A DNA stretch of 53,648 bases from Nemertoderma westbladi (lineage: Eukaryota; Animalia; Xenacoelomorpha). The notes beneath the pieces were generated by a model. That model did not search any database. It saw only the letters and a list, made by a program, of their open reading frames with translations, and was not told where the DNA came from. Positions within the stretch are counted from its first letter, which is position 1, and every line of letters starts with the position of its first letter. The translations under genes were made by a program, and so were the position numbers. This document shows, piece by piece, positions 3,451 through 45,258 of this stretch. The stretch lies in assembly GCA_032718475.1 (NCBI GenBank), contig JAUCBJ010000649.1, positions 1-53,648 of the forward strand, in the 5' to 3' direction.

Positions 3451-5629
3451 TGTAAAGTCCAGTAGTATACCGTTTACCGGATCCTAGTAATGATGTATCG
3501 TACCGTAAGATCCAGTAGTGTATACGGGCTCGTACAGTATCTGGCAATAAATCCAAGTCCAGGGTGTCTAAATAAACAGATACAAGTACGCGATCAACTA
3601 CTGGCGAGGAACAGAGCCTGGTGTCTATTCTAAATATGTGAGCGAGTCAAATGCCTGACGAACTAGACAAAAGGATACCTGTCCTCTAACCGGTGAGGCA
3701 GATGTACAGTCTACGGTGACAGACCAAACTCACGAGGAAACAATCCCCGCACAGCGAATCCTAACTATTGCTAACGGACCTAAATACCGTAAACCTGCCG
3801 CGGTGTGTTTTATATGGTTTATATACGAGCTAGTGGATTAACAGACTGGCATAACAATACTGACCAGTACTAAATCAGTCAAAGGGGGGTCGTGCCTAAT
3901 GTAACAATACTGTGAGCAGAAAAAACAGTCAAAAGGGGTCGTGCCTAAAGTAATAATACTGTCGCTCAAGTAAAACAACAGTCTAATAAGTAAATACTCC
4001 TTCTTGCCGTAACTAAATCAGATCCTAAATTTACAAGCTACGAACAGTAAAACTATAAAATAGATTCGGTCTGAAAGTAACCTAAAGTAAGCTATAACTA
4101 GTAGAGCTCTAAGGGTGCATATGTTTTAGGGCATTTGTGTGTGTGTGTATGTTATGAATAAAACAGTTTTGGCGTACTCCATTGTACTAGGTTATAGTGA
4201 ATTTCTGACCGAAACAATACCGTGCGCTAGCTACGAAAATAAGCTAGTCGCGCTCTGTAGGGCTTATACTTACAAAATGACATCAAAGCTCTCTCCTTCC
4301 TATCCACAACTCAACCGGGCAATTACGGTGTTAGTAACTACACCCGTGATCGGCACAAATACCAGATTCTGGTTGTAAGATAAGAAATAGGGGTTAATTG
4401 CTACCGTACGTTAGCTGATCTGGTATACAATTTGATTCTAGAATTTTGTTGCTGTGGTGGTTAGCAGCAATACCTATCAGTACGTGGCAAGGTGCGGTAG
4501 GATATTAATAAAACCTCCCTAGGCCAAGCGAGTGCCAGTAGCAGAAATACACCTTGCCTGATCAAATAACGTGGGTCAGGCAGGTGGGGGGGGGGGGGGG
4601 GGGGGGGGTACTAATGTATAAACTACAAAATGAACCGGTACCGAACTGTCAGTATTGCAAATCACTAAATTATGGAATGTATGCTGTCTGTACCTAATGT
4701 GTACTTGCGTACTGACGAACAGCAATAGTTCACACCTGTAGGGAATACAGGTTAATCCGGGGATTTGTCGTACTGGTTCTACTCTGAAGCTTAGTTATTT
4801 GATCCTAAATTTTGCGGCGTCCCAGGACGGCATCACGCTTACCCTGATCTATAGGTCTTACGGTGGGCAAGGGCGTCAAACAAAGTCTTACCTTCCTCTG
4901 AATCGGGTGCTGCATAGCAAAGGTATTTCGAAGGGGCGAAGGGGGTGCATGGGCTAATCTATTGTGGGCGCTAGCGTGTTGTGGACATCTTTCCCTGCGT
5001 TGCTGATGGCCTAACAGTCTAGGCAGCCATCCTCCAAATGCTTGGCTGTCCCAATAGTGGGCAAAGGGAAATATACATGTTCAAAGTTTACAGTATATTT
5101 ACGTAATTTACAAAGATTTATCAAACAAATTTAATCTAAAGATATGACAAGAAACTAATGTGATAACTAAAGTAAGTAATAACGTAATGATGTTGTTGTA
5201 ATGTGTGGAGTGATAACCGAGGGCAAACTGGCCCTTATATAGCAAATCTGGGACATATAATCCACTAGAACATTCCAGAGTATTCCATGGCCTCACATTG
5301 GAGCAATAAGATGTTCTATGCCCAATGATTGGCCCAGCTCATCGTTCCATATGTTGTACGCACCTCATTGGTTTATCTAATCAAATCAATCAAAACATAA
5401 ATAGCCCAAAAATGCAAATTTCCCGACTGGGATTCGAACTCATAACCTATCTGTAATGTAACCAACGCCTTAACCATCTGACCACTGCGCCAATAGAGTT
5501 ACCTATGGATTTATGTGTACCAATATGAATAGGCATATTACATTACTGTAATTTAATCAAAATGCGTTGGATTTTAGAAAGTTTTTACGTTAAGCTACAA
5601 ATGCTACCTTATAGTGAAATAATCCATCA
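3451..5629 (-). repeat. 3' LTR of element 1 (2179 bp)
   Basis: Direct repeat of 21404-23562 with tgtaaagtcc...aatccatca ends. About 19 substitutions in the first ~520 bp by eye (~96% identity). Confidence 0.97.
5422..5491 (-). ncRNA. tRNA-like Pol III cassette in the 3' LTR
   Basis: Minus strand has A-box TGGTCAGATGG, B-box GTTCGAATCC and a TTTTT run just downstream. The cloverleaf is imperfect. Confidence 0.55.
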
Positions 5630-5636: not shown

Positions 5637-6427
5637 ATGAAAACAGTAAGTAAGACTGTTTTCACCAATCGAAATACAAACTATTTACAAAATATCTCTT
5701 TGGTCTAATAGTTAGGCCTAAAATACAAATAATCACTATCTATGTATTGCATACTTATTATTGCAGGTACAGCGTAAATACAATCTATCATACATACAAA
5801 ATATAAATTTACCAATTAACTTTAGTACATAAAATACAAAAAAGAGGGCTTTCGGTTATCAAAATGAACAAATTAAACAAATTAGAACAAATAATTTCAA
5901 AACTTTCGATAATCTTTATATATTACAAATATATATAATAAACTTTCCAAACTAAATCTTTCCAATATAAACAAATATAATGCGCTAATAATTTCCAAAT
6001 AAGTCTTAAAGTGTCCTCCTGACGATCTCAAAGTTCATCCTGCTGGTCTAGATATCTTCTCCTGAGCACTGATTGCTAACGGTAGGCTCATAAGCCTTAC
6101 TTCTCTACCTTGCTCTTCCAAACCCAACATCCAAATATAAATATCCAAATATAAACATCCAAATATAAACATCCAACGGTAGGCTTGCAAGCCTTCCTTC
6201 TTTCACCTCGCTCTCCTAATCCTTTGTCGAACTGGCTCGTCCCTGCCCTCTAAGACGATTGGCTGGTGGTCAGGATCGAACTGGTCTCGGACTTCGGCGT
6301 CGAGCTGTCGGTGGTTCTAAAACGCTAGGAAAGAGGACGACGGGAGTCTCACACATCCGTCCGGCGCTCAATCCTCTAAATCCTCGTCCGATTCCAATCA
6401 TTCGCTTAGTAGCATCGGACCGAGTCT

Positions 6428-9400
6428 CTACAACGCTAGGAGGGAGTCTAAGGGGTGGGACCGTTCCGTCGCTGACACCTCACTCTCCGACGTCGTCTGA
6501 ATCCTCATAGGATCTGGTAGAACATATCCTGTCCCTCCACGTGGTTCTCTAGGAAGGGAAACCGTGCCCCGAGTCATCCGGATTTGGGACTTCAATGTCG
6601 TCCTCTCGGCGACATTTACTACCTTCTTTATTTTCTGTCCGGCTTTCTGGGCTCTAAGTATACTAAGTTGCGGATCTTCCTGTGGGGGACGTGTCTTTTC
6701 GGCTAACGGTGTGGTCCTGAAGCCAGTCTCACGCAAAACGTCCACCTCATCTAGAATACACGAGGTTATGCGTTTGTGATAAAATGCGCTTCGGTATGCC
6801 CAAGCTATCGAATGCCAGGCTCCTCGATTCCGCTGTTCGACTCGCAATTTGTCGAATTCTCCGGCGGTAATCTTATTCACCACAGTCTGAAAGTTCCATG
6901 TGTTCTTATTGTCGGGGTGTACCTGTAGAAAGTAGTCCCTAACAACTTTAAATCCGCTATCCAATGGCAATATATCTAGCACCTCCAAAAGTTCATCGTA
7001 TTGAGGCATAGCTGACACGTATCCGTCTTTCGACATGATGAGAGGGTTTACGGCCCAAAATCCCAAATGCGCTCTCATGGGGAAATGGCATCGCTGCGTC
7101 GACACATGCTCGTCTGCTAGATTCTCCCAATGGTCGAGTAGCTGTTTAACGATTTTAACTGACATATGCTCATAGGGAACGTCCCTAAGTTGGCACTCTG
7201 ATGCCCTATGACCTTTAATATTGCAATACAAGCACTGCGCCACGAAACACCAACAAGTGTAGAAAGTGTGTGAACGTTGATCCCCACACCAGTTGCACAC
7301 TAAATTCGGTAGAGATATGTGTTTCGCTCCACATTTCTTTGTGTGATGGCTAGTAGCCCCGCATCTGCCACAAATGGTGTTGGCAGGATACCAAACTCGC
7401 TCATAGATGAGATCTCCAATGGGGCGAGCGCTACCGTCCACGTGATAACTCTCATCATCCGGGTCAGTCGGTATATTCATCTCCATAGGTTGTACACAAA
7501 CCATGGCGTCGCTTTTCTCTAACTCGCGTATCTCAGTTCGCATCTTCCTCGGAAGGTTCTCTTCTATTTCTATGAGTTGCCGCAACGGCTCGTCTATTAT
7601 CGCGGACTCGGTCGAATCCTCATCGTCATGATGGGCGGTAGGCTCGTGAGCCTTCCAGGATCCTTCCGGGCCTTTGAATTCCGCGTGGCGTTCCCCGTCG
7701 TAGGGTACTAACGTCAACATCGACGGTCTGTCGACTAGGCTTCCCGTGTGAGTAAGATAAACATCCCTAAAAATGCTAAGTCCCGCTTGCGTGAAAACTT
7801 CGCAGTGCGCATCGGTGTTATAAAAGGGTTGGAGAAATCGGCGGAAAACATCAGTATGCATCCTTCCTCTGTCGTAAATGGTATGTCCTTCCCCGAGACA
7901 TAACGGATGTCGCTTTAGAGTCCTAGACACTACATTTGCTATGAAGCATACATTCACCGAAGATTCGATCGCCAAATAGTATTGCAAGATTATTCGTGGA
8001 GGTGAGATAATCGCCCAGTACACGCAACCTTGCCACTTCAACTGTGACTCGAACTCGTTTACGCCGGGGGTATCGCCCTCACCGTATACGTCCGTGTATT
8101 TGCTCCTCTTACTCTCTTTGTAATCCCAACTGAACATTAGATATGAGATATAACCCGTTCCAGTTTTTAGCGTGTTATACTCCCTGAAATATCCTTGCTC
8201 GATAGCCCAAAGCAACAATGGTCTAGTATCCACATATGGCGTAGGCAATCGATCCTCCTCCTCGGGCATTCCTGCGAAATCGCTAATAAGGTCATCCCAT
8301 ACACCGGATCCGATCTTGACGATACTTTTATCAAGTACAACGTCTCGCACGGCCTTTGGCAACATCCTAGCTTCTATGCTACAAGCCAGGTCCATGGATT
8401 TAACTATCCGTTTTATCATCGCGTGTCTTTGCGTCATTCCTTCCAGCATAGGCATCTTTCTGTCACTCCTCTGTCGGCTGAAGACATGTAACACTCCATC
8501 GGGTGCTTGAATTTGTATGGTCTTTGAAGTGAGGCTCTGCTGATGGCTTCCTCCTTCATTATCATAAAACATATAACCATTCTCCTGCAGAGATCGGCTC
8601 GTTGCGTCCCAATCATCGAGTAAATCGTCGGTAGGGTTCCAAATTCTCCCTATGGACTTTTCATCGTCAAAACTAATAGGGTTTCCTGTCCAATTGGTCG
8701 CAATATCGGTGTCGGTTTCGAACGTGCCGACTCCGATCCATAATCAAATCATTTTCGCCAAATATCCTCGCAAGATACAAGGTGCGATATGCGTCCCCGT
8801 GCGATCCACTTCCTTAAAGTCCGTAATATGTGGAGGCATATTGCATACGATTTCCTGAACTATTGTTCTACGCAACTCCGCCGCCTCTAACACATCACCA
8901 AAGGTAACCGATGGGAGGAAATCCAGGTTCGAAATGATCTCCGGGTGTTCAACTATGGGGATCTTGTAAGTTGTCTCCTCTCGGGTTGGTATGCTAATAG
9001 GAAAGCTGGTTGGTCTCGCGACTGGTACTACCGCTTTAGTAGGATAGGGCTGAGGTTCTCGCGTCATCTCGACATGAGGTATCTGTAGTCTCTGCGACAA
9101 ACGCTGAGCAAAGGTGATACTATCGAAGAGTTCAGGTGTCATCTCCTTAGGTTCAGTTTGATCGTAGGATATCCAGTAAAATGGTAGGCTCGTGAGCCTT
9201 CCGCCAAACTCCTCGATCTCACCTTTCTTGTACGCTTTGTACGCCCTATAGAGGCTCAAAGCTTCCCGTTTCTCTTGTGTTGACTTATTAGACTCGTCCA
9301 CTATCATACTATAGATGTCTGGTTCGACTAATTTGGGTTCGTAAATAACAATTTCGCCCGCGTTCAGTTCACTCATCTTAAACGAATGGTACGGATTCGT

Positions 9401-10013
9401 CAAAGGGTATCCGCCTTCTTGGAAACGCAGACTTTCATGGTATGAACATCGTGCTAATATCGGCTCGGGGTTCTCCGAGTTCAAGCGCATAGGAATCGCG
9501 TTGTCTTGCTCGCGCATACATCCTCCACATTTGTAAAACAGTTTATAAATGGAGAACGCGTCCTTTGTCTCTGGATCCACTCCTCGAGCGCGTCTATAAA
9601 GATGCATTCCGTCAAATTCGTCCCTAGCTGCAGGCAAGGGTTCGCTCGCCGTCAAATATTGCAGTGTATGATATAATCGGCATATCTCCGTGTCTGGATC
9701 CTTGCAAATGTCACTGGCGTCGCATAACGCATCGTAGGGATACAACGCATTGAACTCCGCGCATAACTCCTCCGCTCTTTTGTTATAAGCGTCCAATCCC
9801 TGTTGCGTAACATTCGGGTCCGCCTTGGATTTAGAGAGCTTGGCTGCACTCCTAGCCATACTCTCCACTCCAAACACATTAAAGTTGTTGGCTCCGTAAC
9901 GATTAAACGGTGCCTGGTGCTCCTGTTCCTGTGTAAATCCATGACGTAACTCCTTATAAATCTTCTCCGCCATCACATACGCGTATATATGGTTACATAT
10001 CGTTACGTTTCTA
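6428..10013 (-). CDS. Accessory protein: N-terminal CxxC..CxxH region, DEDDy 3'-5' exonuclease and three CCHC-type zinc knuckles (one internal TGA at 8744-8746)
   Basis: The 410-aa and 714-aa ORFs are in one frame, separated by a single TGA and 57 open codons. Motifs: ExoI ISFDDE, IQIQAPDG, LPKAVRDVVLDKSIVKIGSGVWDDL (ExoII), YVDT, W..SPP..LQYYLAIE (ExoIII, D replaced by E). Knuckles: CGRCGATSHHTKKC, CNWCGDQRSHTFYTC, CLYCNIKGHRASEC. Branch point CTAAC (10036-10040) and acceptor at 10013/10010. Confidence 0.8.
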
Positions 10014-10689
10014 CTAGATGAAGCACAAAATAGAGGTTAGATGTGAGGATACTTCGAGTTTTGTCGGCTTTTGGCTCAACTTTGCTCTAAAACCCCTACC
10101 CATTTGCCTAATGACTTTGGGTTTTGCGTGATTTCGCACTGGCTCCTAATCCAAAAAATGTGCCGATAAAAAACGAATTCCAGGTAAACTAGCCGCGAGT
10201 CTAAAATACTCACCTTTTAATTTCCCAAACTACTTACCAAAGAAAATTTTGCAGTCGAGAATTAATTTGGTCTAAGATAATAGTAGACACGACTACGTAG
10301 AATAAGGCCGATTTTCTTTTCCAAAAAAATTTATCGGTAGGCTCGCAAGCATTCCATCCGCTCTTGTCCTCCCCAATTTTTATTTTTATCTAGCTGTATT
10401 CTAGAATTCGCATTCACTGGAGAACCATTTTTCTTAAATTTAAATCCAACCAAATGGATTTGTCTAATAATTTTTGAAAATTGTCTCACTTGTGGGTTCC
10501 AAGTGGAATTCCATTCCTACTGTACACACAATCCCGCTCCTATGTGATACATAAGGGTACTACCCTCCATGTTCACATATAAAGACAATGGAATTCCACC
10601 GCTGTCTCTATCTACAGTGAAGAGGAATACAATGCATATACAGTAATACAAAATACTAAATTACTAAAATACGGTAAGGCTATGTGGCA

Positions 10690-11912
10690 TAGGGTAGGTC
10701 GATTTTTACTTTTTTTGGATATCTAGATTTTCTCATTGATAAAAAGTGGCCTTGGGTCCTAAAACTTTGTAGAAACGAAATTTTAACTCCTAAAAATTAT
10801 GTTTGACCCCTGCACTGGACGTCGTCCAGTTCCCGCCCTAGCCGCTAGTGAGTCATTTTCCCAATTATTGTGATGATCAACTTCTAGTATTCCTACCGCA
10901 TTGATATTATGCTCATTAGAACCGCAATGACCGATTTAGTTGGTGTAGACACCTTCAAAACAAGCATAGAGCGCTAAAAATTATGTTTGACCCCTGCACT
11001 GGACGTCGACAAGTTCCCGCCCTAGCCGCTAGTGAGTCATTTTCCCAATTATTGTGATGATCAACTTCTAGTATTCCTACCGCATTGATATTATGCTCAT
11101 TAGAACCGCAATGACCGATTTAGTTGGTGTAGACACCTTCAAAACAAGCATAGAGCGAGTAGTTTTTGAGATATTGCAGAATATGTGAAGTCCGGTACAA
11201 GTCAACATTAGCGCCTTGATGCGGTATTGACAAATACACTAAAAATGATACTTTTAATTATCTCAAGGCATCCACAATTTACACATAACTGCAGTGATCA
11301 ATTTAGGGGATGTTGAAACTCTAATAATATGAGTTCAGTGATTAGTTCTCGAGTTATTGTACAAAACGTCTGGACTGAGTCAGCTCAATATAAGGTCATT
11401 AATTGGTGGACCTAACCTTGACATTTTGTACAATAACTCGAAAACTAATCACTCAATTAATATTTTTAGAGTGTCAACATCCCCTAAATTGATCATTGCA
11501 GTTATGTGTAAATTGTGGATGCCTTGAGATAATTAGAAGTATCATTTTTAGTGTATTTGTCAATACCGCATCAAGGCGCTAATGTTGACTTGTACCGGAC
11601 TTCACATATTCTGCAATATCTCAAAAACTACTCGCTGTGTGCTTGTTTTGAAGGTGTTTACACCAACTAAATCGGTCATTGCGGTTCTAATGAGCATAAT
11701 ATCAATGCGGTAGGAATACTAGAAGTTGATCATCACAATAATTGGGAAAATGACTCACTAGCGGCTAGGGCGGAAACTGGACGACGTCCAGTGCAGGGGT
11801 CAAACATGATTTTTAGGAGTTAAAATTTCGTTTCTACAAAGTTTTAGGACCCAAGGCCACTTTTTATCAATGAGAAAATCTAGATATCCAAAAAAAGTAA
11901 AAATCGACCTAC
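10690..11912. mobile_element. Foldback/MITE-like insertion with ~493-bp inverted arms
   Basis: 10694-11370 is the reverse complement of 11420-11912, apart from a 184-bp tandem duplication in the left arm (10790-10973 and 10974-11157). Spacer is 49 bp. Possible TSD TGGCA (10685-10689, 11913-11917). Confidence 0.9.
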
Positions 11913-11938
11913 TGGCAACCATCAAGGGTCCCACATCT

Positions 11939-13415
11939 CTATATACTAAGATTGGATGGAGATTTGTAGTCTCCTGTCTCGTTTCTAGTCTCCTCAAGGA
12001 GCACAAGACGTTGTACAGGCCTATCTGCAGTACGTCCGTCAATAGTCCATACAGTAACTGTCCTTACTACACCAGATGTAGGGTGCGTGGTCAAAATGAC
12101 TTTAGTCAGCCAAAACCGTCTTTTCAGATTGGTTTCAGCCAATAAAACATGGTCACCTCGTCTCAAACATTGGGTATTAAGATACCAAGAGGTTCTGGTC
12201 GAAATAGAGGGTAAATAGTGCTTCTGCCATATTTCCCAGAATTTGTTGGCTAACAACTGAGTGATTTTCCAAGCTTTGTTGCCGTATCCATCACTATCGA
12301 CAGGTACCGAAGTGGGCAACAATGTTGTCGGCGCCTGCATAAGCAGGTGCGCTGGTGTCAAGGCAAACTTGGGGATCAAAGCGATCGGTCTGGTATTCAA
12401 AACCGCTTCGACTTCTATTAACAACGTCGTCAGTTGGTCGTCTGTCGAAATGCGTTGCGTCGGTATTACTTTCGCCATAGCTGTTTTAATTGAGCCAATC
12501 AGCCTTTCCCAAACGCCGCCTCTCCACGGACTGTTGGAAGTGTTAAAGCTCCAGACAATACGTTGAGGATGCAGTTCCTTGGAAATCTGGTTTTGGTCCA
12601 ACTTTTTTAAAGCTCTGGTGATTTTATTCCGTGCACCCACAAAGTTAGTCCCTTGGTCGCAATAAATGGATTTGACCAATCCACGTCTAGCAATAAATCG
12701 CCGTAAGGCTAGGATAAAGGCGTTGGTGGTTAAATCTGTCACACGCTCAATATGGACAGCTCTGCTGGCCAAGCAAGTGAAGATCAATCCCCAGCGTTTT
12801 ACCTGTACCCTTCTGCGTTTCGCAATTATGGGTCCAAAACAGTCTATCCCTGTCTCAGTGAAAGGGGGTCTAAAAGCCTGTAATCTCGCTAGTGGTAGTT
12901 CACTCATTTCTTGGTGACCTATCCTCGCGTGCACCTTCTTACAAATCATACAGTTCCGTGTTACCGAACTCAATGCCTTGCTAGGCCTAATCAGTACAAA
13001 CCTCGAGCGTAAGTGTGATAAACAGTGATGCCTACCTACGTGTTTGAGTCATACATGTGTGTCCAGTATCATAGCGCACTGTAACTCATGGTGTTGCGGT
13101 ATGATGATAGGATACCTAAAGTCAAGTGCAAAGTCGATGTTTTGGAGTCTGGACTTGTGACAAAGTAAGCCCCTATAGATAATCGGACTCCAACTCAAAA
13201 TCGGTGAAGACTTGATCTGTTTACCCTGATTGATCACTGTGAACTCTCGTGCGGAATATCGCAATTGATAATGTCTAATAATATCAACTTCACAAAGACC
13301 AGCTTCCTATAAGGTAAGTCTTCTAGGAAAGTCGCGTTTGCCTCTGGCATATTGTCTCAAACGTTTGAGCCATGCTAACTTGCGGCACGCTTCAGTCCAT
13401 GATCTAGTTAGGTTT
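11939..13415 (-). pseudogene. Bel/Pao integrase (Zn-binding, DDE core, C-terminal domain), interrupted upstream
   Basis: PPFTETGIDCFGP, LIFTCLASRAVHIE, CDQGTNFVGA, GGVWERLI, FWEIWQKHYL, RPVQRLVLLE. Stops and frameshifts at 13049 and ~13310-13417. Confidence 0.93.
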
Positions 13416-13416
13416 A

Positions 13417-14982
13417 CTATCCTGCCAACGTAAGTGTTGGTGACGTCATCAGGCAAGGTATAGTCGAAGTGTGGATACTTGTTCGGACTTGGTATGGTAG
13501 GCCCACGGGCCTTCCGGTAGGTGTCTCCCTTTGTGCAATAGGTTTGTCTGAGTCCTCAAGTAATTTAATCTCCGCGGTCTTACCTTTACCGTCCGCACCC
13601 AGTGAATTGACTGGCAGTAACGGTTTCAACTCTACAGTACTAGTGCGTTCCCGTGAGCTCGTAAGCTTCCTAACCTTAGTCACACGTTTACCTGTAGACG
13701 GTAAGTGAAGTATTTTCCTTGAGTGGAGTGTGATTGCTGTGGCCGCACCTTCGTCATCCAAGGAAGTCAAATTTGGTAAGTTGTCAATACCTAATGGGTG
13801 TGTACTAGTCCGCTCCAATGGATTCATTGCATCCTTGTAGTACACGTTGTTTCTTTCCAACAAGTCATCTAGTGGAAAGTCTAGTAGACAGTCTGGTGAG
13901 GCGTCCGGCGAACAGTCTGGTCAGACGTCTGGTGAGACATAGCGCGGAACTTCCAGCAAAATGTCCTGTCGTTGGTCCCAAAGAAAGTCTGGCGTAGCTC
14001 CTGTCAGAATGTCTGGTCTAAAGTCTAGTGGACAGTCTGGCGAGACATCCAGTAGACAATCTGTTGAGAGTTCCATAAAACAATCTGGCGAATAATCCGG
14101 AAAACAATCTGGTGTCGTTTCTGGTGAATAATCTGGCGAGACATCTGGTGAACAATCCGGCGAAACGTCTGGTGAAATCTCCTGCGGAACATCTGGTGAA
14201 AGATTCGTATGAACGTCTGGTCGAGAGTCTGGTGAGACGTCTGGCGTAATGTCAGGTCTAATGTCCAGATCATCAGATTTTGTCTGTCCTTGTTTACTCT
14301 TGACCTTGGCGTTGGCTTTCGCTTTGGACTTGACAACAGTGTCGATTTTTATCTCGGCACCCTCCGGTATGGTATTAGTTGTTGCGTCAAATAACGGTGG
14401 CCATTCGTCTGATGGTCGTTGTAGGAAATTGGGTCCTCTAAACCAAAAGGATTTATTGTCTGGTTTACAAAAGTCAATAGGTAGCATCCCCTGTGACGCG
14501 ATGTCAGCTGGGTTCAGCTTCCCTGGACAGTGACGCCAATCTTGTTTGAGCGACCGGTCCAATATTTCAGCCCGTCTGTTGGCTATGAAAGTCTTGAACT
14601 TGAATGTTTTGTTGTTTATGTACCAAAGTACCAACGTCGCATCCGTCCAATATGTGACCTTCAAGTTAGCCTCCAGCTCGCATTGTACTAAACTGACAAT
14701 ATCGGTGGTTATCGTCCCGGCTTGCAGCTCTCCACGAGGTACAGTCATATACTTCAATGGCATTGTTCTAGCCCTTGAAGTAACGAGAGACACTTCGTAG
14801 CTGTCTGATGTCACTTGTCGTCTAAGGTATATAGTAACCCCCAGTCGATCCTTACTAGCATCACTGAAGCTGTGAAGCTCTAAATCGGCAGGAAAGGTTG
14901 TCTGCAAAGGAAAGTATACCCTCAGTATGGTATAGTCTTGTAAGAACGTCAGTTGGGCTTCCCAGCCCCTCCATTGCTCAGC
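13417..14982 (-). pseudogene. Bel/Pao RNase H (Pao peptidase A17-type) domain plus expanded SPD-repeat linker
   Basis: LHSFSDAS, TVPRGELQA, YWTDAT, WRHCPGKLNPADIASQG, WFRGPNFL. In-frame stop at 13921. Confidence 0.92.
13880..14260 (-). repeat. 12-bp coding minisatellite (SPDV/SPDC/SPDY) within pol
   Basis: About 30 degenerate copies of a TCGCCAGACGTC-like unit. Confidence 0.85.
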
Positions 14983-15942
14983 TTACTTTTCTGGCATGGG
15001 GTCGTCCCATTCCAGTCCGGCTTGCCAAATGCTGCGGAGTATGATCCTGGCATTTAGGATCACTGGGCTAATGAAACACAATGGGTCATACAATCGACTC
15101 ATGGTCGATAAGCAAGTCCTCTTAGTGAGAGGTCTAATCTGTCCGTTGGACCTTACACGTACCCTAAAGTTGTTGGTGTTCTGGTCCCAATTAAGTCCTA
15201 ATACCTTGGACGTAGGTAGAGGTTCTAGGTCTAAGTCCAAGTCTCCTCCACTGTGATCTGTCGGGTCGAATGAGTTCACTAGTTTAGGTTCGTTGGAAGC
15301 GAACTTCGTGAGGTGAAATCCGCCCTCAGCGAGACAATCTTGGAGTTGGTGTGCTACGGTCATAGCGCGCTCCAGAGTGTCACAACTCTTGAGGCCTTCA
15401 TCCACATAGAAGTCTCGTTCCACTGTCTGAGCTAATTCTGGGTCGAATTGGTCTTGTCTGTCTAATGCTGTTTGCTTCAAGGCATACATGGTGCAGTTGG
15501 GGCAATCCCTGGCTCCGAAAACTCTTACCTGCATTTTGTAAGTTTCTGGCGGAAGTTCTAAATTTCCGTCCGGGTACCAAAGAAACCTTAAACTATCCCT
15601 GTCCCGCTCCAAAGCCTTAACCTGGCGAAACATAGCCTCTACATTACAGGTGAAAACCACTTTGCATTGACTAAAACGCATTAGGACTCCCATGAGGTAA
15701 TTATTCATATTTGGCCCGTCCATCAGTTCGCTGTTCATAGACATCCCTTGGTAAAGTGCGGCGCAGTCATTGACTACATGCACCTTGCCAGGTTTGTCCG
15801 GGTGTCGAACAAAATGATGTGGCAGGTAATATATTTGATCTGTGGTTACCTCTGGATTTAACATCCTAATGGCGTATCCCTTTTGGAGATACGACTGAAG
15901 TTGCGCATTGTATTGCATATGGGCCGTCTCATCACGCAACAA
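14983..15942 (-). pseudogene. Bel/Pao reverse transcriptase
   Basis: YYLPHH, KPGKVHVVNDCAA, MFRQV, VFGARDCP, FYVDEG (catalytic YVDD changed to YVDE), KVLGLNW, YDPL. Flanked by in-frame stops. Confidence 0.93.
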
Positions 15943-17217
15943 TCACTGCCTTATTGATTTTAGTCGCCGAAAAGCAAGCAGGTAGTTGTTAACGAGCTTA
16001 GGTTGTCCATGGCGCCACAACATGCCAACTTCGTAGTGGCCATTCGGGGTCTGGCGAATGGTATCTCTCATTATATTTAATGATCGTTTTTCCTGTTCTG
16101 ACATAGCGGTCTTGTAACTACCGGGTTCTGCTGAGTCCTGTTCTAACCATTTAATGGTCAATTCAGTCAGCAGTCGGTCAAGTGCTGCTTGCACTGTGCC
16201 ATAGTCCTCGTCTACATCGTCGTCCTCTGTGGTGGCTAGTGTCAATGTGTCTGGTAGGCTCGCAAGCCTTCCGGTGTCACTAGTCGGTGTCGAAACTTTG
16301 TGAGGCGGTTTGACAACCTTCTGATCTGTCGGTAGGCTCGCAAGCCTTCCAAAATCCTCGTTAATCGAGTCATCCACAGCAACAACCCTTTGGTCTTCGG
16401 TAGACAATACAACCTGTTTCGCTGCAAGTAGCTGTAAGTCAGAGGTCCGTGTGGTCATGTCCAGATCAGTTACATCAGTATCAGTTACGTCAGTGTTAGC
16501 GACGTAAGTCTGTCGTAGTGCAGTCTGTACAATTGGACCACAGGAGTGTGGAGGAGAATTATCTATCGTGGTAGTCAGTAAACTACACGTACTTAAAACG
16601 TCGTCCTCCTGGTCACTTACCTCTAGTGAACGCACTGGTGCTCTAGTATACCAACCTATGGGAGTTCTACATGCATAGGGGTTGCCCGCTGTAATAACAG
16701 ATGGGCGTGTCTCCCATACCTGATGTAAGTTAAACTGGTCTGTCCCAATAAACATTGCGATTGAGCGATAATTAACAGGACATTCTGGTATTCCAAGGTG
16801 TCGGAAATACTTACGATCTTCCGGTGATTGCTCTGGCACAGGGCCGAGCAAGTTACTAAAGTCCTTCGAAGCTGCAAAGGTCAAATTTCTTACCGGAAGT
16901 AATGAGCGCTCCTCCTTACTGTGTTCCGCTTTGGAAAGAAGAGTGTCTAAGGTTAATTTTACTCTTGTCACAGGAATCGCTCTCTTACCATGCATGCTGC
17001 TTACAGTATACTGAGCAGTCTTACCTTTACTCATGTCAGTAACTACGTCGGCTACTTGTTCGTCTACGTAACAACTATGCGATGACGCAGAGTCTAAGAT
17101 AGCATATATACGCTTGCTCCCTCGGGTTCCGGTAATCTTTATAGGAATCACGCTAAACCCTTTTAATTGGTTCTGTGTGAGGAGTGTTATCGATGGTTGT
17201 TCCTCCCCCGCATTCAC
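15943..17217 (-). pseudogene. Bel/Pao aspartic protease and PR-RT linker
   Basis: YAILDSASSHS, MFIGTD, PYACRTPIGW, GHYEVGMLW. Confidence 0.9.
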
Positions 17218-20200
17218 GTAGAGGTGTCGTCTTCCTCCTCATCCTCGTCCGATGATCCAGATTGATCCATACAATCAGTATAGAATGTGCAAATCTCACG
17301 CAGCACACACTCCTTATAAAGTGCATCGCATCTAGCCGCTTTATCTGGATGCTCTCGTCGAAAGCGTTTGGTCGGAGTATGACTATTTGTATGGAGTAAT
17401 GCATCGTGGTTACGTCCACATAGAGGACATGTATCATCGCTCGGGCAATCCTTCCGGATGTGTCCAGGCTTGGTACATTTCCAACAAGAATGCAACAATC
17501 GAATTTGGAGTCTCCTTTCTTCAACTCCCAACTCTCTAAAAGCGCGACATCCACGTGGTTTCTGCCGTTCCGTTCGCAATATGAGCATCCCACAAAGTCC
17601 ATCGGCAACTGTTGTCATGGCTGCTTGGTGCCAATAGGCGTCAGAACTTTAGAAGTTCCCATTGGGGTGGCATAAGTCACGGCTTTCGCGTTCATCGGAA
17701 ATGGTTTGTTCCGATTCGGCGCAGCAATAGCTATTCCTTCTGCCGCTATATGGTTGTCAGTGTAGTTTGATCGAGTCTCAACCACGGCCTCTCGCGAAAT
17801 CAATTGGTTGACGTCGGTAAGTTTTAATAGACCGCTGGCCTCTTCACGCTGATACTCAATACGTCGCCATTTTCGTCATAATCAATGATGGAGTCGACCG
17901 ATTATCCTAATTAGAACTGTCGGTGCGTTGGCGTACTCGAGTTGTCTGATGGACCGTAAAGTCCCTATAGCGTTCTTGATTTCGTCCGCGAGTCGTAGAA
18001 GATTGATCGGTTTCGAAATGCTTCCTCCTCTACAGAGGTCTTCGATAATAGATTTAGCCATTGCTACGCTGCTGCCATAAATTGAAAACAAGCGGTTGTA
18101 CGCCAACTCAAAGGCATTCGGAACACCGATAAAGGTCTCCGCTAATCTTTTCGGCTCACCAGATAGTACTTGGAGCAAGTAGTTAAACTTCTCCGTCGAG
18201 GTGAAGGCACACTTAGCGATCTGGGACTCTACGTAGTCTACCAGCGTACGCCAGTGCTTCGCGTTGCCAGAGAACTTCGGTGGTTGTTGTGCTGGTAATC
18301 CATGTCTGGCCGCAAACTTCGCAATCTCGTTAACCAAATCCAACTGTCCGCGTCTTTGTTCGGTTACGTCGTCCAGTCGTTCCCTTCTGCGCATTGTCCG
18401 TTGGTAAGAAATATTAACGGGATCTTCTTCTCGATGGTTCGGAGTCTGTCTCGTCTCTTGTTCTCTCCTTGGTGGTCGATATTGTCTAGATCGTTCCAAC
18501 TCCATGCTGGGTCGTGATCGATCCGACGGTTGCGCTTTGAGTCGCTCTTCGAGTTGAGCTAGTCGGTCCGCCATCTCAGTGAACTGTTTGGCGCTAATCG
18601 CTTCCGCTGGTTGCAGAGTGGGTTTCTGTTGGGGTGTTTCTCGTGGAGGATTGTCGATGTAAAGATTCGTCGATCTTTCCTCTCGTTTGTAATTTTCTGC
18701 CGCTCCAGTATGAAATATTTCCCTCTCCGTCGACTCCGAGTCACTAGATGAATCGCTATCGTCCGGATAAGGTGGTTGGTGGGTTCGCGTCTGGCATATT
18801 GTTTTCGTCGGTTGTGTCCGTCTTCGTACGGCGTCCTCGGTTCTTCGTCGTTCGGTAGGCTCGCAAGCCTTCCACGAAGTGGTAGGTCTCGTTACACAGT
18901 GTGTCAAAGGTCGAATAAAGCAGCCAGGTTTTGTAGTCGGTCTGTAAATGACTGGGTTCGTGCAGCACTTTACAGGTTTAACTGCCAACGGCTTACTTAC
19001 CTGCTTAACTGTCATAAATACAGGTTCCTCTCTTCCTACAAGTAGACTACGGCTTACTGTAGGTGGACTACTTACTTTACCAGCTAAAATCGGTGATGAC
19101 ATCGCTCTAGGTTGCGGTATTTCTGTCACAACAAACCTGTTACCTTGCGTTGAGCGCACAGGTGATATTTCTTTTGGTTTTGCAACTAAAACCGGTTTTA
19201 TCGGAGTTGTGGGTTTGAGCATAGGAATCACTTGGGGAAAACGTTTACAGTAATCCTCGACGAACTCCCCTCCTCGATTTATCGCTCCCACACTTCCTTC
19301 CTCGATTCGCCTTTGAATCCCGCGATATCGAGTCTCTATGCAGTCCAGGGCAGACAAGTCATGTCTAGATTGAGACCTTATAGATCTGTCTCTCGCGTCA
19401 GAGTTCGAGGTCTTCTTGCGCGTTTGCTGCCTCGCACGATCTGTGATCTAGTTCGAATTGGAGCCGCATCTCCCTTTCGCTTTGATCGGCTACCTGTTGT
19501 TGCGCTGCTCGCTACGCTTCCTGTATAGCTAGACGAGCGTTTATTTGTCGCGCCTCCAACTTTGCACGAGTGTCGGATGCCGCCTTCTTCCGTACTAACT
19601 CATCGGCTGCTGCCTGTCGTGCTGCTGCCGCTGCGGCTGCTTCTTGCGCCAAGTCCTCCTCCAGTCTCCGCATTTCCGAGGCTTCGAATTCGGCTTGAGC
19701 CTGGAGTTTCGCAATTCTTGCTTCGTCTTCTCTACATTGTTTCTCTCCCTCGATGGCGATCTGTGCCATCTGTCGTTGCGCTTCTTCCTCGGTGACTTGT
19801 TGTTGGCGTGCGACCTCCTGTTGTTGTCGAGTAATTACAGACGTCGTCTTACTAACGTCACCAACATTGCTCCGTACACTAACGAATGATCTATCCATTG
19901 GTGGAATTTGGTAGGCTCGCAAGCCTTCCGTAGTTAGAACTTCCGTCGTCATCGTTGGTGAGCGTCTCTAACCTCCCGTCCAGGCGATAGAGTTCTTCTT
20001 CCTCTTCGGGTTGCAACAACGTGTCCGAAACTGACTCACCTAGCAGTTGGTCGAACTGCTCCTGTTGAGCCAATCTTATTACTGACTTAAACTGGATGAG
20101 GCTTTCCCTCGCACTTACCAACTTATCTATTATCTTTACCTGAGTAAATTTGTCGCCACACAACTCCGCAAGTTTGTGTAAACCTTTAAGTTTATCTATG

Positions 20201-20604
20201 GAAACATGTACCCTACTTTCTACCCTTACCTGTAAGGTGTAGAACTCGTATCTCGACATCGGGGCGGTTAACCCGCGTAAAACGCGAAAACCTTCTCCGA
20301 GGTTTCGAGTAATCTGGGCCATGTGTCCTCCTATACTCCTAATAACATTTTCTTGGCTTCCCGCCAAGCTTACCATATCTGGTTCCCGCGATCCGGTCTG
20401 CGGGATGGTAAGGAAATCTTCGATTCTGCCGTCGCCACGCATTGCAGCTTCCGGTATTTCTGTTTGGGGTACCGGCGACGCACGCGGTGTGACATCGGTA
20501 GAATCTCGGGTTCTCCTTCTCGGTTCGTCTACTGTCAATCTGTCCGGGTCGCACGAGTCATAGTCGGTAGGTGGGTATCGAGTCAAATGTGGTGTGTCAC
20601 TCAT
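17214..20604 (-). pseudogene. Bel/Pao gag, broken into five or more ORF pieces
   Basis: Start MSDT, coiled-coil segment, DUF1759-like PPKFSGNAKHW..EKFNYLLQVLSGEP, and knuckles CWKCTKPGHIRKDC..CPLCGRNHDALLH. Multiple frameshifts. Confidence 0.9.
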
Positions 20605-20968
20605 GTCTTATTATATACGTCAAGTACGGGTAATAAAAATGTCAAAGTATCAGAATGTCAAAATGTCGAAATGTTCAAACTTACCTTAGTATATATATAT
20701 ACCATATATATACCCTAACTGGTACAAATAAAATCAAAGTATATAATAAAATATGTAATAATCTAGTCTACTGGCTAAATTTGTACGAATAAGTGTGATA
20801 ACGGTATACGTTACCAAAATGTAGATCAACAAGTACAAATAATAGGCAAAACAGCAACGTCTAATGGGAAAATAAGTACCAACAACACTACTAATTAGAC
20901 AGTGGAACCCACAAATTTTGAGTACTACTGTGCTCTTAAGTTTGAACGACATGAGTCGTAAAACTTAC

Positions 20969-21153: not shown

Positions 21154-23167
21154 CTGCAAAAAATCTTCCTAGGTACCGATACAACTTGGTCTTTAAACCC
21201 TATGTACCTTTTCAAGTACCGAAAGTAACACCGCACACACACAGCGTAAAACAAATTGCTACAAACTAACTATTAGCTAGTCAAATATTAAATACGAAAA
21301 CTACTAGCTACCCTAAAGGCCTACTGAAGCAATGTACAAAATGTTGCCTTTCAGAAAGGACAAATAGTATTCTTACTAAATATTTAATAAGAATATTCCC
21401 TACTGTAAAGTCCAGTAGTATACCGCTTACCGGATCCTAGTAACGATGTATCTTACCGTAAGATCCAGTAGTGTATACGGGCTCGTACAGTATCTGGCAA
21501 TAAATCCAAGTCCAGGGTGTCTAAATAAACAGATACAAGTACGCAAACAACTACTGGCTAGGAACAGAGCCTGGTGTCTATTCTAAATACGTGAGCGAGT
21601 CAAATGCCCGACGAACTAGACAAAAGGATACCTGTCCTCTAACTGGTGAGGCAGATGTACAGTCTACGGTGACAGACCAAACTCACGAGGAAACAATCCC
21701 CGCGCAGCGAATCCTAACTATCGCTAATGGACCTAAATACCGTAAACTTGCCGCGGTGTGATTTATATGGTTTATATATGAGCTAGTGGATTAACAGACT
21801 AGCGTAACAATACTGACCAGTACTAAATCAGTCAAAGGGGGTCGTGCCTAATATAACAATACTGTGAGCAGAAAAAACAGTCAAAAGGGGTCGTGCCTAA
21901 AGTAATAATACTGTCACTCAAGTAAAACAACAGTCTAATAAGTAAATACTCCTTCTTGCCGTAACTAAATCAGATCCTAAATTTACAAGCTACAAACAGT
22001 AAAACTATAAAATAGATTCTGTCTGAAAGTAACCTAAACTAAGCTATAACTAGTAGAGCTCTAAGGGTGCATATGTTTTAGGGCGTGTGTGTGTGTTACA
22101 AATAAAACAATTTTGGCATACTCCATTGTACTAGGTTTTAGTGAATTTCTGACCAAAACAATACCGTGCACTAGCTACGAGAATAAGCTAGTTGCGCTCT
22201 GTAGGGCTTATACTTACAAAATGACCTCAAAGCTCTCTCCTTCCTATCCACAACTCAACCGGGCAATTACGGTGTTAGTAACTACACCCATGATCGGCAC
22301 AAATACCAGATTCTGGTTGCAAGATAAGAAATAGGGGTTAATTGCTACCGTACGTTAGCTGATCTGGTATACAATTTGATTCTAGAATTTTGTTGCTGCG
22401 GTGGTTAGCAGCAATACCTATCAGTACGTGGCAAGGCGCGGTAGGATATTAATAAAACCTCCCTAGGCCAAGCGAGTGCCAGTAGCAGACCTTGCCTGAT
22501 CAAGTAACGTGGGTTCAGGCAGGGGGGGGGGGGGGGGGGGTACTAATGTATAAACTACAAAATGAACTGGTACCGAACTGTCAGTATTGCAAATCACTAA
22601 ATTATGGAACGTATGCTGTCTGTACCTAATGTGTACTTGCGTACTGACGAACAGCAATAGTTCACACCTGTAGGGAATACATGTTAATCCGGGGATTTGT
22701 CGTAACTGGTTCTACTCTGAAGCTTAGTTATTTGATCCTAAATTTTGCAGCGTCCCAGAATGGCGTCATGCTTACCACGATCTATAGGTCTTACAGCAGG
22801 CAAGGGCGTCAAACAAAGTCTTACCTTCCTCTGAATCGGGCGCTGCATAGCAAAGGTATTTCGAAGGGGCGAAGGGGGTGCGCGGGCTAATCTAATGTGG
22901 GCGCTAGCGTGTTGTGGACATCTTTTCCTGCGTTGCTGACGGCCTAACGGTCTAGGCAGCCATCCTCCAAATGCTTGGCTGTCCCAATAGTGGGCAAAGG
23001 GAAATATACAAGTTCAAAGTTTACAGCATATTTATGTAATTTACAAAGGTTTATCAAACAAATTTAATCTAAAGATATGACAAGAAACTAATGTGATAAC
23101 TAAAGTAAGTAATAACGTAATGATGTTGTTGTAATGTGTGGATTGATAACCGAGGGCAAACCGGCCC

Positions 23168-23174
23168 TTATATA
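23168..23174 (-). promoter_or_regulatory. Candidate LTR TATA box (TATATAA) with upstream CCAAT boxes
   Basis: Minus-strand GCTATATAAGG ~390 bp into the LTR, with CCAAT motifs near 23233, 23263 and 23302. Conserved in the 3' LTR (5235-5241). Confidence 0.55.
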
Positions 23175-23354
23175 GCAAATCTGGGACATAGAATCCACTA
23201 GAACGTTCCAGAGTATTCCATGGCCTCACATTGGAGCAATAAGATGTTCTATGCCCTATGATTGGCCCAGCTCATCGTTCCATATGTTGTACGCACCTCA
23301 TTGGTTTATCTAATCAAATCAGAGCGAAAATAAATAGCCCAAAAATGCAAATTT

Positions 23355-23424
23355 CCCGACTGGGATTCGAACTCGTAACCTATCTGTAATGTAATCAACG
23401 CCTTAACCATCTGACCACTGCGCC
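23355..23424 (-). ncRNA. tRNA-like Pol III cassette in the 5' LTR
   Basis: GGCGCAGTGGTCAGATGGTTAAGGCG...GAGTTCGAATCCCAGTCGGG, then TTTTT. Confidence 0.55.
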
Positions 23425-23562
23425 AATAGAGTTACCTATGGATTTATGTGTACCAATATGAATAGGCATATTACATTACTGTAATTTAATCAAAATGCAT
23501 CGGATTTTAGAAAGTTTTTACATTAAGCTACAAATGCTACCTTATAGTGAAATAATCCATCA

Positions 23563-25998: not shown

Positions 25999-27081
25999 GC
26001 AATAATTTTTATTGTCCGTTTAAATCACTCATGATGCCCTTTTTTATGACTTTTTATGTCCTCCAGAAATTTACCATTAGGTTCCATGCTACCGGTTTCT
26101 CTACTGCTTTTCTCTCAGGCTATCAGTACCGGTATTAGTTTTTTTTTTATTTTTTTATGTCCTCCAGAAATTTACCGTTAGGTTCCATGCTACCGGTTTC
26201 TCTACTGCTGTTCTCTCAGGCTATCAGTACCGGTATTAGTATATAGAGCACTATTTTGCAGTATTGCATGTACAGATGTAGGTATAAAGCAGGTATTTTA
26301 GTACCGGTACCGGCACCGGTACTGCTGTATGCCTACTGTGTAGCCTACCATTTAAATACGGTACTGGTAGGCCTACCGGCTGACCAGTTGTTTTGGTTAG
26401 AAAATCCCGCCTCTGTAACCTGCTCCTTTCCCTGATTTGGTAAAGTGACCGTTTATTGTTTTGGTTAGAAAGGCCCGCCTCTTTAACCTCCTCCTTTCCT
26501 TCATTTTGTAAAGTGACTGTTTACTGTTTTGTTTAGAAAATCCCGCCTCTGTAACCTGCCCCTTTCCCTCAATTAGTTAAATGATCGTTTATTGTTTTGG
26601 TTAGAAAATCACGCCTCTGTAACATGCTCCTTTCCCTCAATTAGTTAATTGATCGTTTATTGTTTTGGTTAGAAAATCCCGCCTCTGTAACCTGCTCCTT
26701 TCCCTCAATTAGTTAAATGATCGTTTATTGTTTTGGATAGGAAATCCCGCCTCTGTAACCTGCTCCTTTCTCTCATTTGGTAATGTTATCGTTTATTGTG
26801 TTGGTTAGAAAAGACCATCTATGTAACCTGCTCCTTTCCTTCATTTGGTAAAGTGATTGTTTATTGTTTTTTTTAGAAAATCCCGCCTATGTAACCTGCT
26901 CCTTTCCCTGACTTGGTAAAGTGACCGTTTATTGTTTTGGTTAGAAAGGCTAGCCTCTGTAACCTGCTCCTTTCCTTCATTTGGTAAAGTGACTGTTTAT
27001 TGTTTTGGTTAGAAAATCCGGCCTTAACCTGCTCCTTTCCATCAATTGGTAATTGTTTTTGGCTATAAAATGAGTGTTTTG
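25999..27081 (+). repeat. Repeat element with a unique head and ~10 copies of a 68-bp satellite
   Basis: Unit GTTTATTGTTTTGGTTAGAAAATCCCGCCTCTGTAACCTGCTCCTTTCCCTC... The head (26000-26380) is the reverse complement of 33850-34140. Confidence 0.85.
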
Positions 27082-27094
27082 GTAGGCAATTGTT

Positions 27095-30000: not shown

Positions 30001-30160
30001 AGTAGAAGAAGTGTCGTCGCAAACGACAGGAGAGCGAGGATGGATAGTGAGCCGTCGGTAGTCGAGATGGAGTCGGAGAGTCGGTGGGGTCGAACTCCGG
30101 GAGATTGCCGTCATCCCGGAGAAACGCGACCTGACAAGGTGTACTATACAGATACGGCAT
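27095..30160 (+). mobile_element. Truncated Bel/Pao-like element: putative LTR (to 27602) and decayed gag N-terminus
   Basis: AATAAA, then hairpin CGGGATC..GATCCCG and ACA|GTA. ORFs 27703-29059 contain PEDSVSSV..SATSSAK and a coiled coil, typical of Bel/Pao gag N-termini. No pol is present, and the left boundary is approximate. Confidence 0.6.
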
Positions 30161-30162
30161 AC

Positions 30163-30437
30163 CGTTTATTGTTTTGGTTAGAAAAGACCATCTAGGTAAC
30201 CTGCTCCTTTCCCTGATTTGGTAAAGTGACCGTTTATTGTTTTGGTTAGAAAGGCTAGCCTCTGTAACCTGCTCCTTTCCTTCATTTGGTAAAGTAACTG
30301 TTTATTGTTTTGGTTAGAAAATCCGGCCTTAACCTGCTCCTTTCCATCAATTGGTAATTGTCTTTGGCTATAAAATGAGTGTTTTGCTACGTCATGTGGT
30401 AATCGATTATCGACAACAACCACAAACTATTAAATTT
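30163..30437 (+). repeat. Second piece of the 68-bp-satellite element (about 3 units plus tail)
   Basis: Near-duplicate of 26858-27081. The tail is the reverse complement of 32240-32330. Confidence 0.85.
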
Positions 30438-31189
30438 AGTTTCTTCTGCAGTTAATACTGCAATGAAATTATATATGGGCTTCACTTCACTTCCCATTCG
30501 TCTGACTTTCTGTGTGTTTAAATTCCCATTCTTCATTATTTTATTATTTAAATTCTTATTTAATCTTGCTTTATTTCCTGTCGCTCATACACAATTATCC
30601 TGTTTGTCATAAAATCATGTCATTGTAATAATCATATGTCATTATATGTCTAATTTATCGTATGTCTTCATATAATATACATAATATGTCATCATTCATT
30701 CATCAGCACACTTTAATTTAATTTAGCTGGATTATTCGTAATATAAATGTAAATTCATAAATAATTCCTATAAATATAATTCTATCCTAGGGCCTAATAT
30801 AAATATCCTACTTTATTATATTACTTTATGACTTTATTTTACTGCTAATGGGTATACGCCAGGGTTTTATTTTCCCCGCACTTTTATTGAGCCTGTTCAT
30901 ATAAACAGCATTTGTTTATTGGTCTTAGAATGGCTTTCTTAGCACTCTTCACTGTCCTTAGTTCGACTGTCCTGACATGCCTATCTCTCCCGGTTTTTGT
31001 ACCGACTACTCTGGCTAATATCTAGTCGAACTAAGTCCTATTCTATTATACTATTATAAGGACTATACTAGTCCTTATACTATTATCTTAATAATTTGTT
31101 TAATAGAAGCAACTAGCACTATTCGTTCTGTGAGTTGAATATACATAACTGCACAGTGCACCTGATACATGGAGGATACATGGAACACC

Positions 31190-35894: not shown

Positions 35895-35902
35895 CCGCTC
35901 CC
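35895..35902 (-). promoter_or_regulatory. Polypurine tract GGGAGCGG
   Basis: Abuts the 3' LTR and shares its core with the element 1 tract. Confidence 0.7.
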
Positions 35903-35920
35903 AGAAAATGGGATTTTAGT

Positions 35921-44976: not shown

Positions 44977-45258
44977 TGCAATCTGAGCAGGGTTACACGC
45001 CTTCTGCTCAATATTATCCTACTAGTAAATAAAACTGACAGAAATAGACCTAAGTAAAATCCCAATAAAAACCAGGCGTCCCCGATTTAATATCGAGACC
45101 TACCGGTATATAATTATCAAAATCGAATAATACTGCTGTACCTGTACTGCTGTAAGTACCGGTCCGGATGATCAGGCAGTCAGGCCTACAGATTACCGGT
45201 CGACCGGTACTTTAGTCTTGATCGCTTACGCCGTAATCAAGATCCTACAAACTGTTAT

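Follow-up and report, generated by a model that had tools for sequence, protein, structure and literature searches.

A 20-nt palindromic motif repeated ten times through a long BEL/Pao retrotransposon of Nemertoderma westbladi, tentatively read as a distributed packaging tag on its RNA

Ten near-identical copies of a 20-nt palindromic motif, all in one orientation, are dispersed through element 1, a BEL/Pao long terminal repeat (LTR) retrotransposon that carries gag, pol and an accessory gene. Element 1 lies in a 53,648-nt stretch of Nemertoderma westbladi DNA (assembly GCA_032718475.1, contig JAUCBJ010000649.1), called the window here; coordinates are positions in it, element 1 occupies the minus strand, and sense refers to the element strand. 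The motif is a real and probably selected feature. Our leading interpretation, put forward tentatively, is that the ten copies form a distributed packaging tag on the genomic RNA. Every copy would adopt a short hairpin, GG-A-AGGCU-loop-AGCCU-A-CC on the sense strand, each hairpin would be bound by one of the element's own zinc-knuckle proteins, most likely Gag, and many Gag molecules loading along an unusually long RNA would lead to its selective packaging.

All ten copies reported in a first-pass annotation of this DNA were located, each with zero to four differences from the 20-mer quoted there and all sharing one orientation, as it had claimed:

19910 to 19929, minus strand: motif copy 1, loop UGCG, N-terminal gag region, where two gag open reading frames (ORFs) overlap
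18854 to 18873, minus strand: motif copy 2, loop UGCG, Pro/Thr-rich gag linker, read as WKACEPT
16331 to 16350, minus strand: motif copy 3, loop UGCG, linker between protease and reverse transcriptase (RT), read as GRLASLP
16253 to 16272, minus strand: motif copy 4, loop UGCG, protease-RT linker, GRxxxLP frame, 78 nt from copy 3
13496 to 13515, minus strand: motif copy 5, loop CGUG, a C-G pair replacing U-A, RNase H-integrase linker, read as GRPVGLP
10336 to 10355, minus strand: motif copy 6, loop UGCG, one stem pair broken, non-coding, between pol and the accessory gene
9183 to 9202, minus strand: motif copy 7, loop CACG, accessory gene, read as GRLTSLP
7637 to 7656, minus strand: motif copy 8, loop CACG, read as WKAHEPT, in the part of the accessory gene that separates the knuckles from the exonuclease-like domain
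6178 to 6197, minus strand: motif copy 9, loop UGCA, 3′ untranslated region (UTR)
6081 to 6100, minus strand: motif copy 10, loop UAUG, one closing pair broken, 3′ UTR, 97 nt from copy 9

A scan for the two arms (GGTAGGCT-N4-AGCCTTCC, at most three mismatches) returned 19 matches, a count that includes both strands of a near-palindrome, all at the ten motif sites and against 0.33 expected; none of 100 shuffles reached this number, and the highest gave two. Permitting five differences from the quoted 20-mer yielded no additional site in the window, and neither the relaxed arm scan nor a covariance model (made from the ten copies, which match it by construction) found an eleventh copy in the 53.6 kb, the best other site having E ~1. 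By the same two methods the motif is absent from the LTRs of element 1, from a second BEL/Pao element in the window (element 2) and from 33.5 kb of flank, in agreement with the annotation as regards the LTRs and element 2. The most repeated dispersed 8- and 10-mers of element 1 are words of the motif, and element 2 holds no comparable dispersed repeat. The annotation had placed copies in the UTRs, gag, the protease linker, the RNase H-integrase linker and the accessory ORF, which is correct except that the 5′ UTR has none; the four loops that it named (UGCG, CACG, UGCA and UAUG) are all present, and the CGUG of the copy at 13496 had been omitted. A mobile palindrome resembling a miniature inverted-repeat transposable element, an alternative that the annotation had raised, or a repetitive extragenic palindrome is not supported: within the window the copies have a single orientation, are confined to element 1 and lack a target duplication, and matches in sequence collections are at chance level.

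The motif combines a fixed stem sequence, an internal A·A mismatch and self-complementary loops. Columns 1–8 and 13–20 are identical in nine or ten copies, and the edges are sharp, since more than one base outside either side the commonest letter occurs in at most six of the ten. The base just after the motif is always a purine, and the two bases outside it never form a Watson-Crick pair (C/A in four copies, U/G in four, A/G in two), an observation made post hoc (Fisher P 0.029) and treated as a lead only. Every four-base spacer alternates pyrimidine and purine (Y-R-Y-R); on the sense strand the loops are UGCG in five copies, CACG in two, and CGUG, UGCA and UAUG in one each. The UNCG/YNMG tetraloop class was set aside because the closing pair of the motif is U-A and not C-G. 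Rfam contains no match to the motif, its single match being a chance-level one (E 0.92) elsewhere in element 1.

Seven copies are coding, and those at 10336, 6178 and 6081 are not. Four read GRxxxLP (16331, 16253, 13496 and 9183) and two WKAxEPT (18854 and 7637), while the copy at 19910 lies in the gag overlap, encoding EGLRAY in the ORF that continues downstream and GRLASLP in the other, which ends just after the motif. In all four GRxxxLP copies the two mismatch adenines occupy synonymous third positions and are retained, for which codon usage gives a chance of 2e-4, a value that presumes independent copies when these may share ancestry. Because conservation ends within a base of the 20-mer, crosses frames and includes synonymous positions, protein sequence is not the explanation, as the annotation had argued from the different coding frames; the pattern suggests selection on the nucleotide sequence itself. 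No copy occurs in the RT, RNase H or integrase core of element 1.

Other copies of the element extend this picture. In four runs, drawn from three samples and three studies, sibling contigs span 30, 30, 30 and 29 of 30 internal-region bins at 80-100% identity, with 15128, 8012, 9466 and 236 records aligned to element 1, and this near-full cover in four runs indicates a large multi-copy family that includes the accessory gene, whose internal stop in the window the sibling contigs do not share. Among the sibling joints listed, which were 15 of 263 joints and 12 of 126 insert rows and rest on ~20 letters on the shorter side, an intact-type motif occurs at the 6081 site in runs X1, X3 and X2, from two studies, and at the 6178 site in runs X1 and X3, from one sample. 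The sibling flank beside the 6081 site, read by eye, differs from the window at ~6/28 positions. Forty of 2362 sibling difference rows included none in the motif copies, which is uninformative given that ~0.5 was expected.

These data bear on whether the motif could be a neutral or selfish micro-repeat, spread inside one element lineage through gene conversion or template switching and permitted only in linkers and UTRs. Such an origin would suit a sequence that contains no stop in any frame and whose 21-nt unit preserves the frame, that avoids the enzyme cores, that includes two pairs resembling local duplications and that is absent from all relatives examined; template switching can, moreover, create a double change such as that at 13496 in one step (PMC8794818; here and below, sources are cited for the part drawn on). 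Several features fit it poorly, and we consider it improbable. The copies share no common flank and no target duplication, the A·A mismatch is never corrected, and at the two 3′ UTR sites the sibling flanks have diverged when the motif has not. Loop type and outer-base type are not congruent across copies, so that a simple copy tree does not fit, and direct repeats should, by inference, cost the element deletions.

The motif looks private to this element family, judging by the relatives and collections scanned. No trace of the motif peptide was found in the 30 RT relatives or in 11 further cluster members (of 26 listed). Scans of sequence collections for the motif gave single chance-level matches only (68 viral, 2 metagenome and 2 prokaryote loci); in none of the 70 viral and metagenome loci was there another relaxed copy of the motif or any protein matching element 1, and no relatives of its RT or accessory domain were found in viral contigs.

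That the motif would act as RNA rather than DNA is suggested by its distribution, because a symmetric site on DNA would be expected in either orientation and also within the LTRs. The alternative is a binding site of a dimeric protein on integrated or newly copied DNA, made of two nearly identical half-sites separated by a 4-bp spacer. The fixed arms, variable centre and symmetric double change do resemble a dimer site, and since both strands fold alike, folding does not single out RNA. However, only one of four possible half-site arrangements is used, in one orientation, in all ten copies; the LTRs, the expected place of transcription control, hold no copy; the spacer is constrained to Y-R-Y-R throughout; and besides integrase no recognised dimeric DNA-binding domain is present among the element 1 products. 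A DNA site is therefore, in our judgement, a poor prospect. The single orientation of an asymmetric palindrome fits a single-stranded target, and an oversized element encoding knuckles in both Gag and the accessory gene would have candidate binding partners for a packaging tag.

A number of observations nonetheless weigh against the packaging interpretation. Its covariation support consists of one double change, the U-A to C-G replacement at 13496 that keeps pairing; the annotation had called this change compensatory, and it is present, but a single such event was matched by 339 of 500 shuffles (score 0.050 against 0.074). Stems of fixed sequence are just as compatible with a DNA site, with pairing between copies or with recent copying. 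The sense-RNA hairpin of the annotation is predicted, yet the antisense strand folds with near-equal energy, so that the acting strand can be assigned only indirectly: on the antisense strand the copy at 13496 becomes a CACG-loop hairpin, and in 160-nt windows the inner stem exceeds a probability of 0.9 for six of ten copies in sense and five of ten in antisense. An arm pair is broken in two copies (6081 and 10336), but these two single arm changes agree with the 1.3 expected from post-insertion decay, a point in favour of the packaging reading. Two close pairs (6081/6178, 97 nt apart, and 16253/16331, 78 nt apart) reduce the ten copies to about eight independent sites, and these merged sites, spaced 1.06-2.80 kb apart once a 1.2-kb insertion is discounted, are more even than random (P 0.007), which again favours it, although the evenness is not significant with all ten copies unmerged (P 0.14) and is partly imposed by the enzyme cores, which hold no copies. 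The sibling data on conservation cover two of the ten sites, both in the 3′ UTR, and element 2 and all 30 relatives lack any trace of the motif.

Mutation at CpG further complicates the loops. Between the 5′ and 3′ LTRs, 43 of 188 CpG positions and 31 of 1969 others differ, corresponding to ~11% and 0.8% per copy, and these differences indicate strong CpG decay after insertion, at a rate ~14 times that of other positions in this copy. Such decay can account for the UGCA and CGUG loops and part of UAUG. Given that about two decayed loops are expected from the CpG rate and that siblings carry intact-type motifs at both 3′ UTR sites, the set of functional loops is probably smaller than that seen and confined to loops ending in CG. 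As a source of the whole pattern, CpG decay was rejected: although the rare loops agree with it, element 1 shows no CpG depletion (observed/expected 1.02 overall and 0.99 across codon boundaries).

Published precedents also cut both ways. The nearest is the UGCG tetraloop of Rous sarcoma virus (RSV), which is bound by a nucleocapsid (NC) knuckle (PMC7599994, PMC5035970), but this loop was dispensable for Gag specificity in one study (PMC5035970), the G at the second loop position, which RSV NC pockets, is missing from both CACG copies (PMC7599994), and known packaging and dimer signals of LTR elements lie at the 5′ end (PMC6844567, PMC11381356), where element 1 has no copy. The annotation's broader proposal of a cis-acting RNA signal thus stands as the leading reading, on the strength of confinement in the window, frame independence and two sibling sites, with covariation weak and the strand inferred.

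Close copies are, in addition, predicted to pair with each other rather than remain hairpins, which brings in the strongest rival: that the copies are self-complementary RNA-RNA pairing sites, joining positions within the same genome or between partner genomes as a dimer zipper or in a compacted RNA. Two UGCG copies are predicted to form an 18-bp duplex with a continuous 14-bp core at -33.7 kcal/mol, compared with -18.2 as two hairpins, and the twins at 16253 and 16331 a duplex at -45.6 compared with -31.0 kcal/mol; by these predicted energies the motif would be able to form the self-complementary extended duplex of a dimer site. Among 256 loops, UGCG ranks 15 and CACG 51 in duplex gain. Pairing would also account for stems fixed in sequence, and Ty1, Ty3 and Moloney murine leukaemia virus (MoMuLV) dimerise via palindromes (PMC6844567, PMC11381356, PMC7599994). 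Any hairpin gains from duplexing in such calculations, however, and the duplex is weakened by the fixed A·A mismatch and by an outer position that never pairs Watson-Crick; with CACG copies two A·C mismatches remain, ten interchangeable sites would permit out-of-register dimers, and known dimer sites are few and 5′-terminal, one to three copies near the 5′ end, which is not the arrangement here. We regard copy-to-copy pairing as unlikely, though not exclusive of a packaging tag, with which it is compatible.

The host element is itself unusual. Its features are as follows:

3451 to 23562, minus strand: element 1, BEL/Pao LTR retrotransposon, 20.1 kb, TG...CA ends, 5-bp target duplication ATACC
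21404 to 23562, minus strand: 5′ LTR, 2159 bp, without the motif
3451 to 5629, minus strand: 3′ LTR, 2179 bp, without the motif, differing from the 5′ LTR by 74 substitutions over 2159 aligned columns
17217 to 20607, minus strand: gag, in several ORF pieces, with DUF1759 (E 8e-8) and a CCHC zinc knuckle (E 1e-4, ~17439-17486)
11942 to 17238, minus strand: pol, in several ORF pieces, with protease, RT, RNase H (Peptidase_A17) and integrase (DUF5641)
10689 to 11918, no strand assigned: insertion of 1.2 kb with 280-bp terminal inverted repeats, 98% alike
21394 to 21403, minus strand: primer-site position, no TGG, not of tRNA type, 10 nt pairing exactly with 22670-22679 in the LTR
6431 to 9973, minus strand: accessory gene, ~1180 codons, one internal stop in this copy
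7790 to 8659, minus strand: interval of the accessory gene holding a probable DEDDy (PF01612-like) exonuclease domain
from ~7372 downward, minus strand: three Cys/His knuckle-like motifs of the accessory gene

Assignment to BEL/Pao rests on the TG...CA LTRs with their short target duplication (ATACC), on a gypsy-like order of gag, protease, RT, RNase H and integrase that includes the BEL/Pao-type domains DUF1759, zf-CCHC, Peptidase_A17 and DUF5641, an order confirmed by tblastn with relatives, and on an RT that appears closest to BEL/Pao RTs: it has 30 matches at E <= 1e-40 and 33-42% identity, 29 of them with Peptidase_A17, and the named ones among these best matches are from animals. The insertion at 10689-11918 is non-coding and includes a 184-bp tandem duplication. 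Since sibling contigs join across it, it does not belong to the element 1 family; without this private insertion the element measures 18.9 kb. At either length it exceeds the 15-kb size bound given for the BEL/Pao group, as its 2.16-kb LTRs exceed the range of 0.2-1.2 kb (PMC3118150). This copy is dead, with gag, pol and the accessory gene all broken by stops and frameshifts. A decayed 12/24-nt tandem repeat at 13868-14261 codes for an (S/C)PD-rich stretch in the RNase H-integrase linker, and both LTRs contain a fragment (5420-5495 in the 3′ LTR) that by eye looks tRNA-derived, on the minus strand, in which ARAGORN found no tRNA gene.

The accessory gene probably encodes a DEDDy-like exonuclease domain plus knuckles, on the evidence of a remote relative and sub-threshold structural leads. 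Its product, 1181 positions with X at the one stop, has a single relative (P0002, E 3e-4) among 1.84 billion representatives; the two align in two regions in the same order, the exonuclease-like domain and then the Cys/His knuckle cluster, with the D-x-E and G-S...D motifs in register, candidates for the acidic Exo I, II and III motifs of a DnaQ-like fold. Structure rows of the Atlas point to PF01612 for both proteins, at feature scores (0.75 and 0.87) below the bar of 0.9. The accessory protein has no Pfam, NCBIfam or PDB match, exonuclease included; two structure predictions at a predicted local distance difference test (pLDDT) score of 32-33 gave no usable fold; and a word-index search found no match to it at 424-1350 residues and, for P0002, only itself. 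The N-terminal 410 residues have no Pfam match.

This protein invites a further reading, in which its exonuclease-like domain and knuckles would read the hairpins to export, transport or shield the RNA, in the manner of Rev, CERV or Egalitarian. The Rev response element (RRE) is known only from unspliced or intron-retaining RNA. Five of the ten motif copies lie downstream of pol, two of these inside the accessory gene, and would not mark unspliced RNA alone; the Rev/RRE-like logic suggested by the annotation therefore fits poorly, as these five would occur also in an accessory-gene mRNA. What speaks for export is that the motif and the accessory gene are both rare, the gene having one relative with the same domain order and the same Atlas leads, that CERV of Cer1 is required for genomic RNA export (PMC10309623) and that the exonuclease-like domain of Egalitarian contacts stem-loops without catalytic residues (PMC13186709). 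With P0002 lacking a trace of the motif peptide and the exonuclease call a lead, we hold an export role to be rather improbable. A more speculative scheme, to which we give a minor chance, is private two-part self-recognition: a fixed 20-22-nt RNA barcode placed every 1-3 kb across all genes of the element, which would be read by the exonuclease-fold/knuckle accessory protein or zipped copy-to-copy, holding two long genomes together.

Elsewhere in the window, element 2 (34657-46503) is a BEL/Pao element with 1.24-kb LTRs 98.6% alike, target duplication CCCTA and an open 1235-codon gag-protease frame, in which no RT or integrase core was detected; it is probably a young non-autonomous element. 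Elements 1 and 2 have a common GGAGCGG polypurine-tract end, and neither has a tRNA-type primer site. In both, the nucleotides that directly follow the 5′ LTR are perfectly complementary to a stretch within the LTR: 10 nt in element 1 (21394-21403 with 22670-22679, chance ~0.003) and 11 nt in element 2 (45248-45258 with 46019-46029, chance ~0.0006), making both candidates for self-priming by analogy with Tf1/Tj1 (PMC4600332). Three arrays of a 68-nt tandem unit (26320-27160, 30160-30465 and 32210-33741), in two orientations and with flanks in common, are possibly a mobile element with an internal minisatellite. An open frame of 675 codons at 48242-50266 contains 45/48-nt repeats and a fibrinogen C-terminal domain (E 3e-18).

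With ten copies of a 20-nt motif and two candidate partners on one element, the question can be put to the test using synthetic RNA and individual protein domains. Should the motif prove to be a tag for packaging or pairing, the principle of dispersed signals would extend from RNA viruses to LTR elements, and the motif would hint at how far-oversized elements manage their RNA. Selection and compaction of LTR-retrotransposon RNA are known for a few yeast elements, with signals that are short and 5′-terminal (PMC6844567, PMC11381356); nothing on either process in BEL/Pao was found in the literature searched, nor any published description of a hairpin repeated at dispersed sites in LTR elements, BEL/Pao or otherwise, most subscription journals lying outside that scope.

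Among known systems, the motif is most readily compared with the dispersed packaging signals of MS2, picornaviruses and the hepatitis B virus (HBV) pregenome, which consist of many small stem-loops with a common recognition motif, including in coding sequence (PMC6281560), much as predicted folding suggests for the motif. Those viral signals are degenerate and their binding by coat protein has been shown, whereas the copies in element 1 are near-identical 20-mers in an LTR retrotransposon with a putative binding partner. Stem-loop C of the Rous sarcoma virus micro-Psi shares a UGCG tetraloop and a CCHC knuckle as candidate partner, but it is single and sits in a 5′ three-way junction, while the motif has ten dispersed copies, none in the 5′ UTR and two with CACG (PMC5035970, PMC7599994). 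Similarly, PAL1/PAL2 of Ty1, PAL6 of Ty3 and DIS-1/DIS-2 of MoMuLV are short self-complementary sequences with a hairpin-to-duplex switch, yet they number one to three near the 5′ end, in contrast to a motif that runs through gag, pol, the accessory gene and the 3′ UTR (PMC6844567, PMC11381356, PMC7599994). CERV of Cer1 in Caenorhabditis elegans (PMC10309623) and Rev/RRE resemble element 1 in pairing an LTR element with an accessory gene that possibly acts on its own RNA, with the difference from the RRE that half of the motif copies would also sit in accessory-gene mRNA. Finally, the bdelloid LTR elements Juno and Vesta carry, downstream of pol, an extra gene (ORF3) with a DEDDy-like domain (PMC5408684); the part of that account drawn on here makes no mention of a hairpin or stem-loop (0 occurrences), and element 1 differs in being BEL/Pao and in having a much longer gene with knuckles and weak support for the domain.

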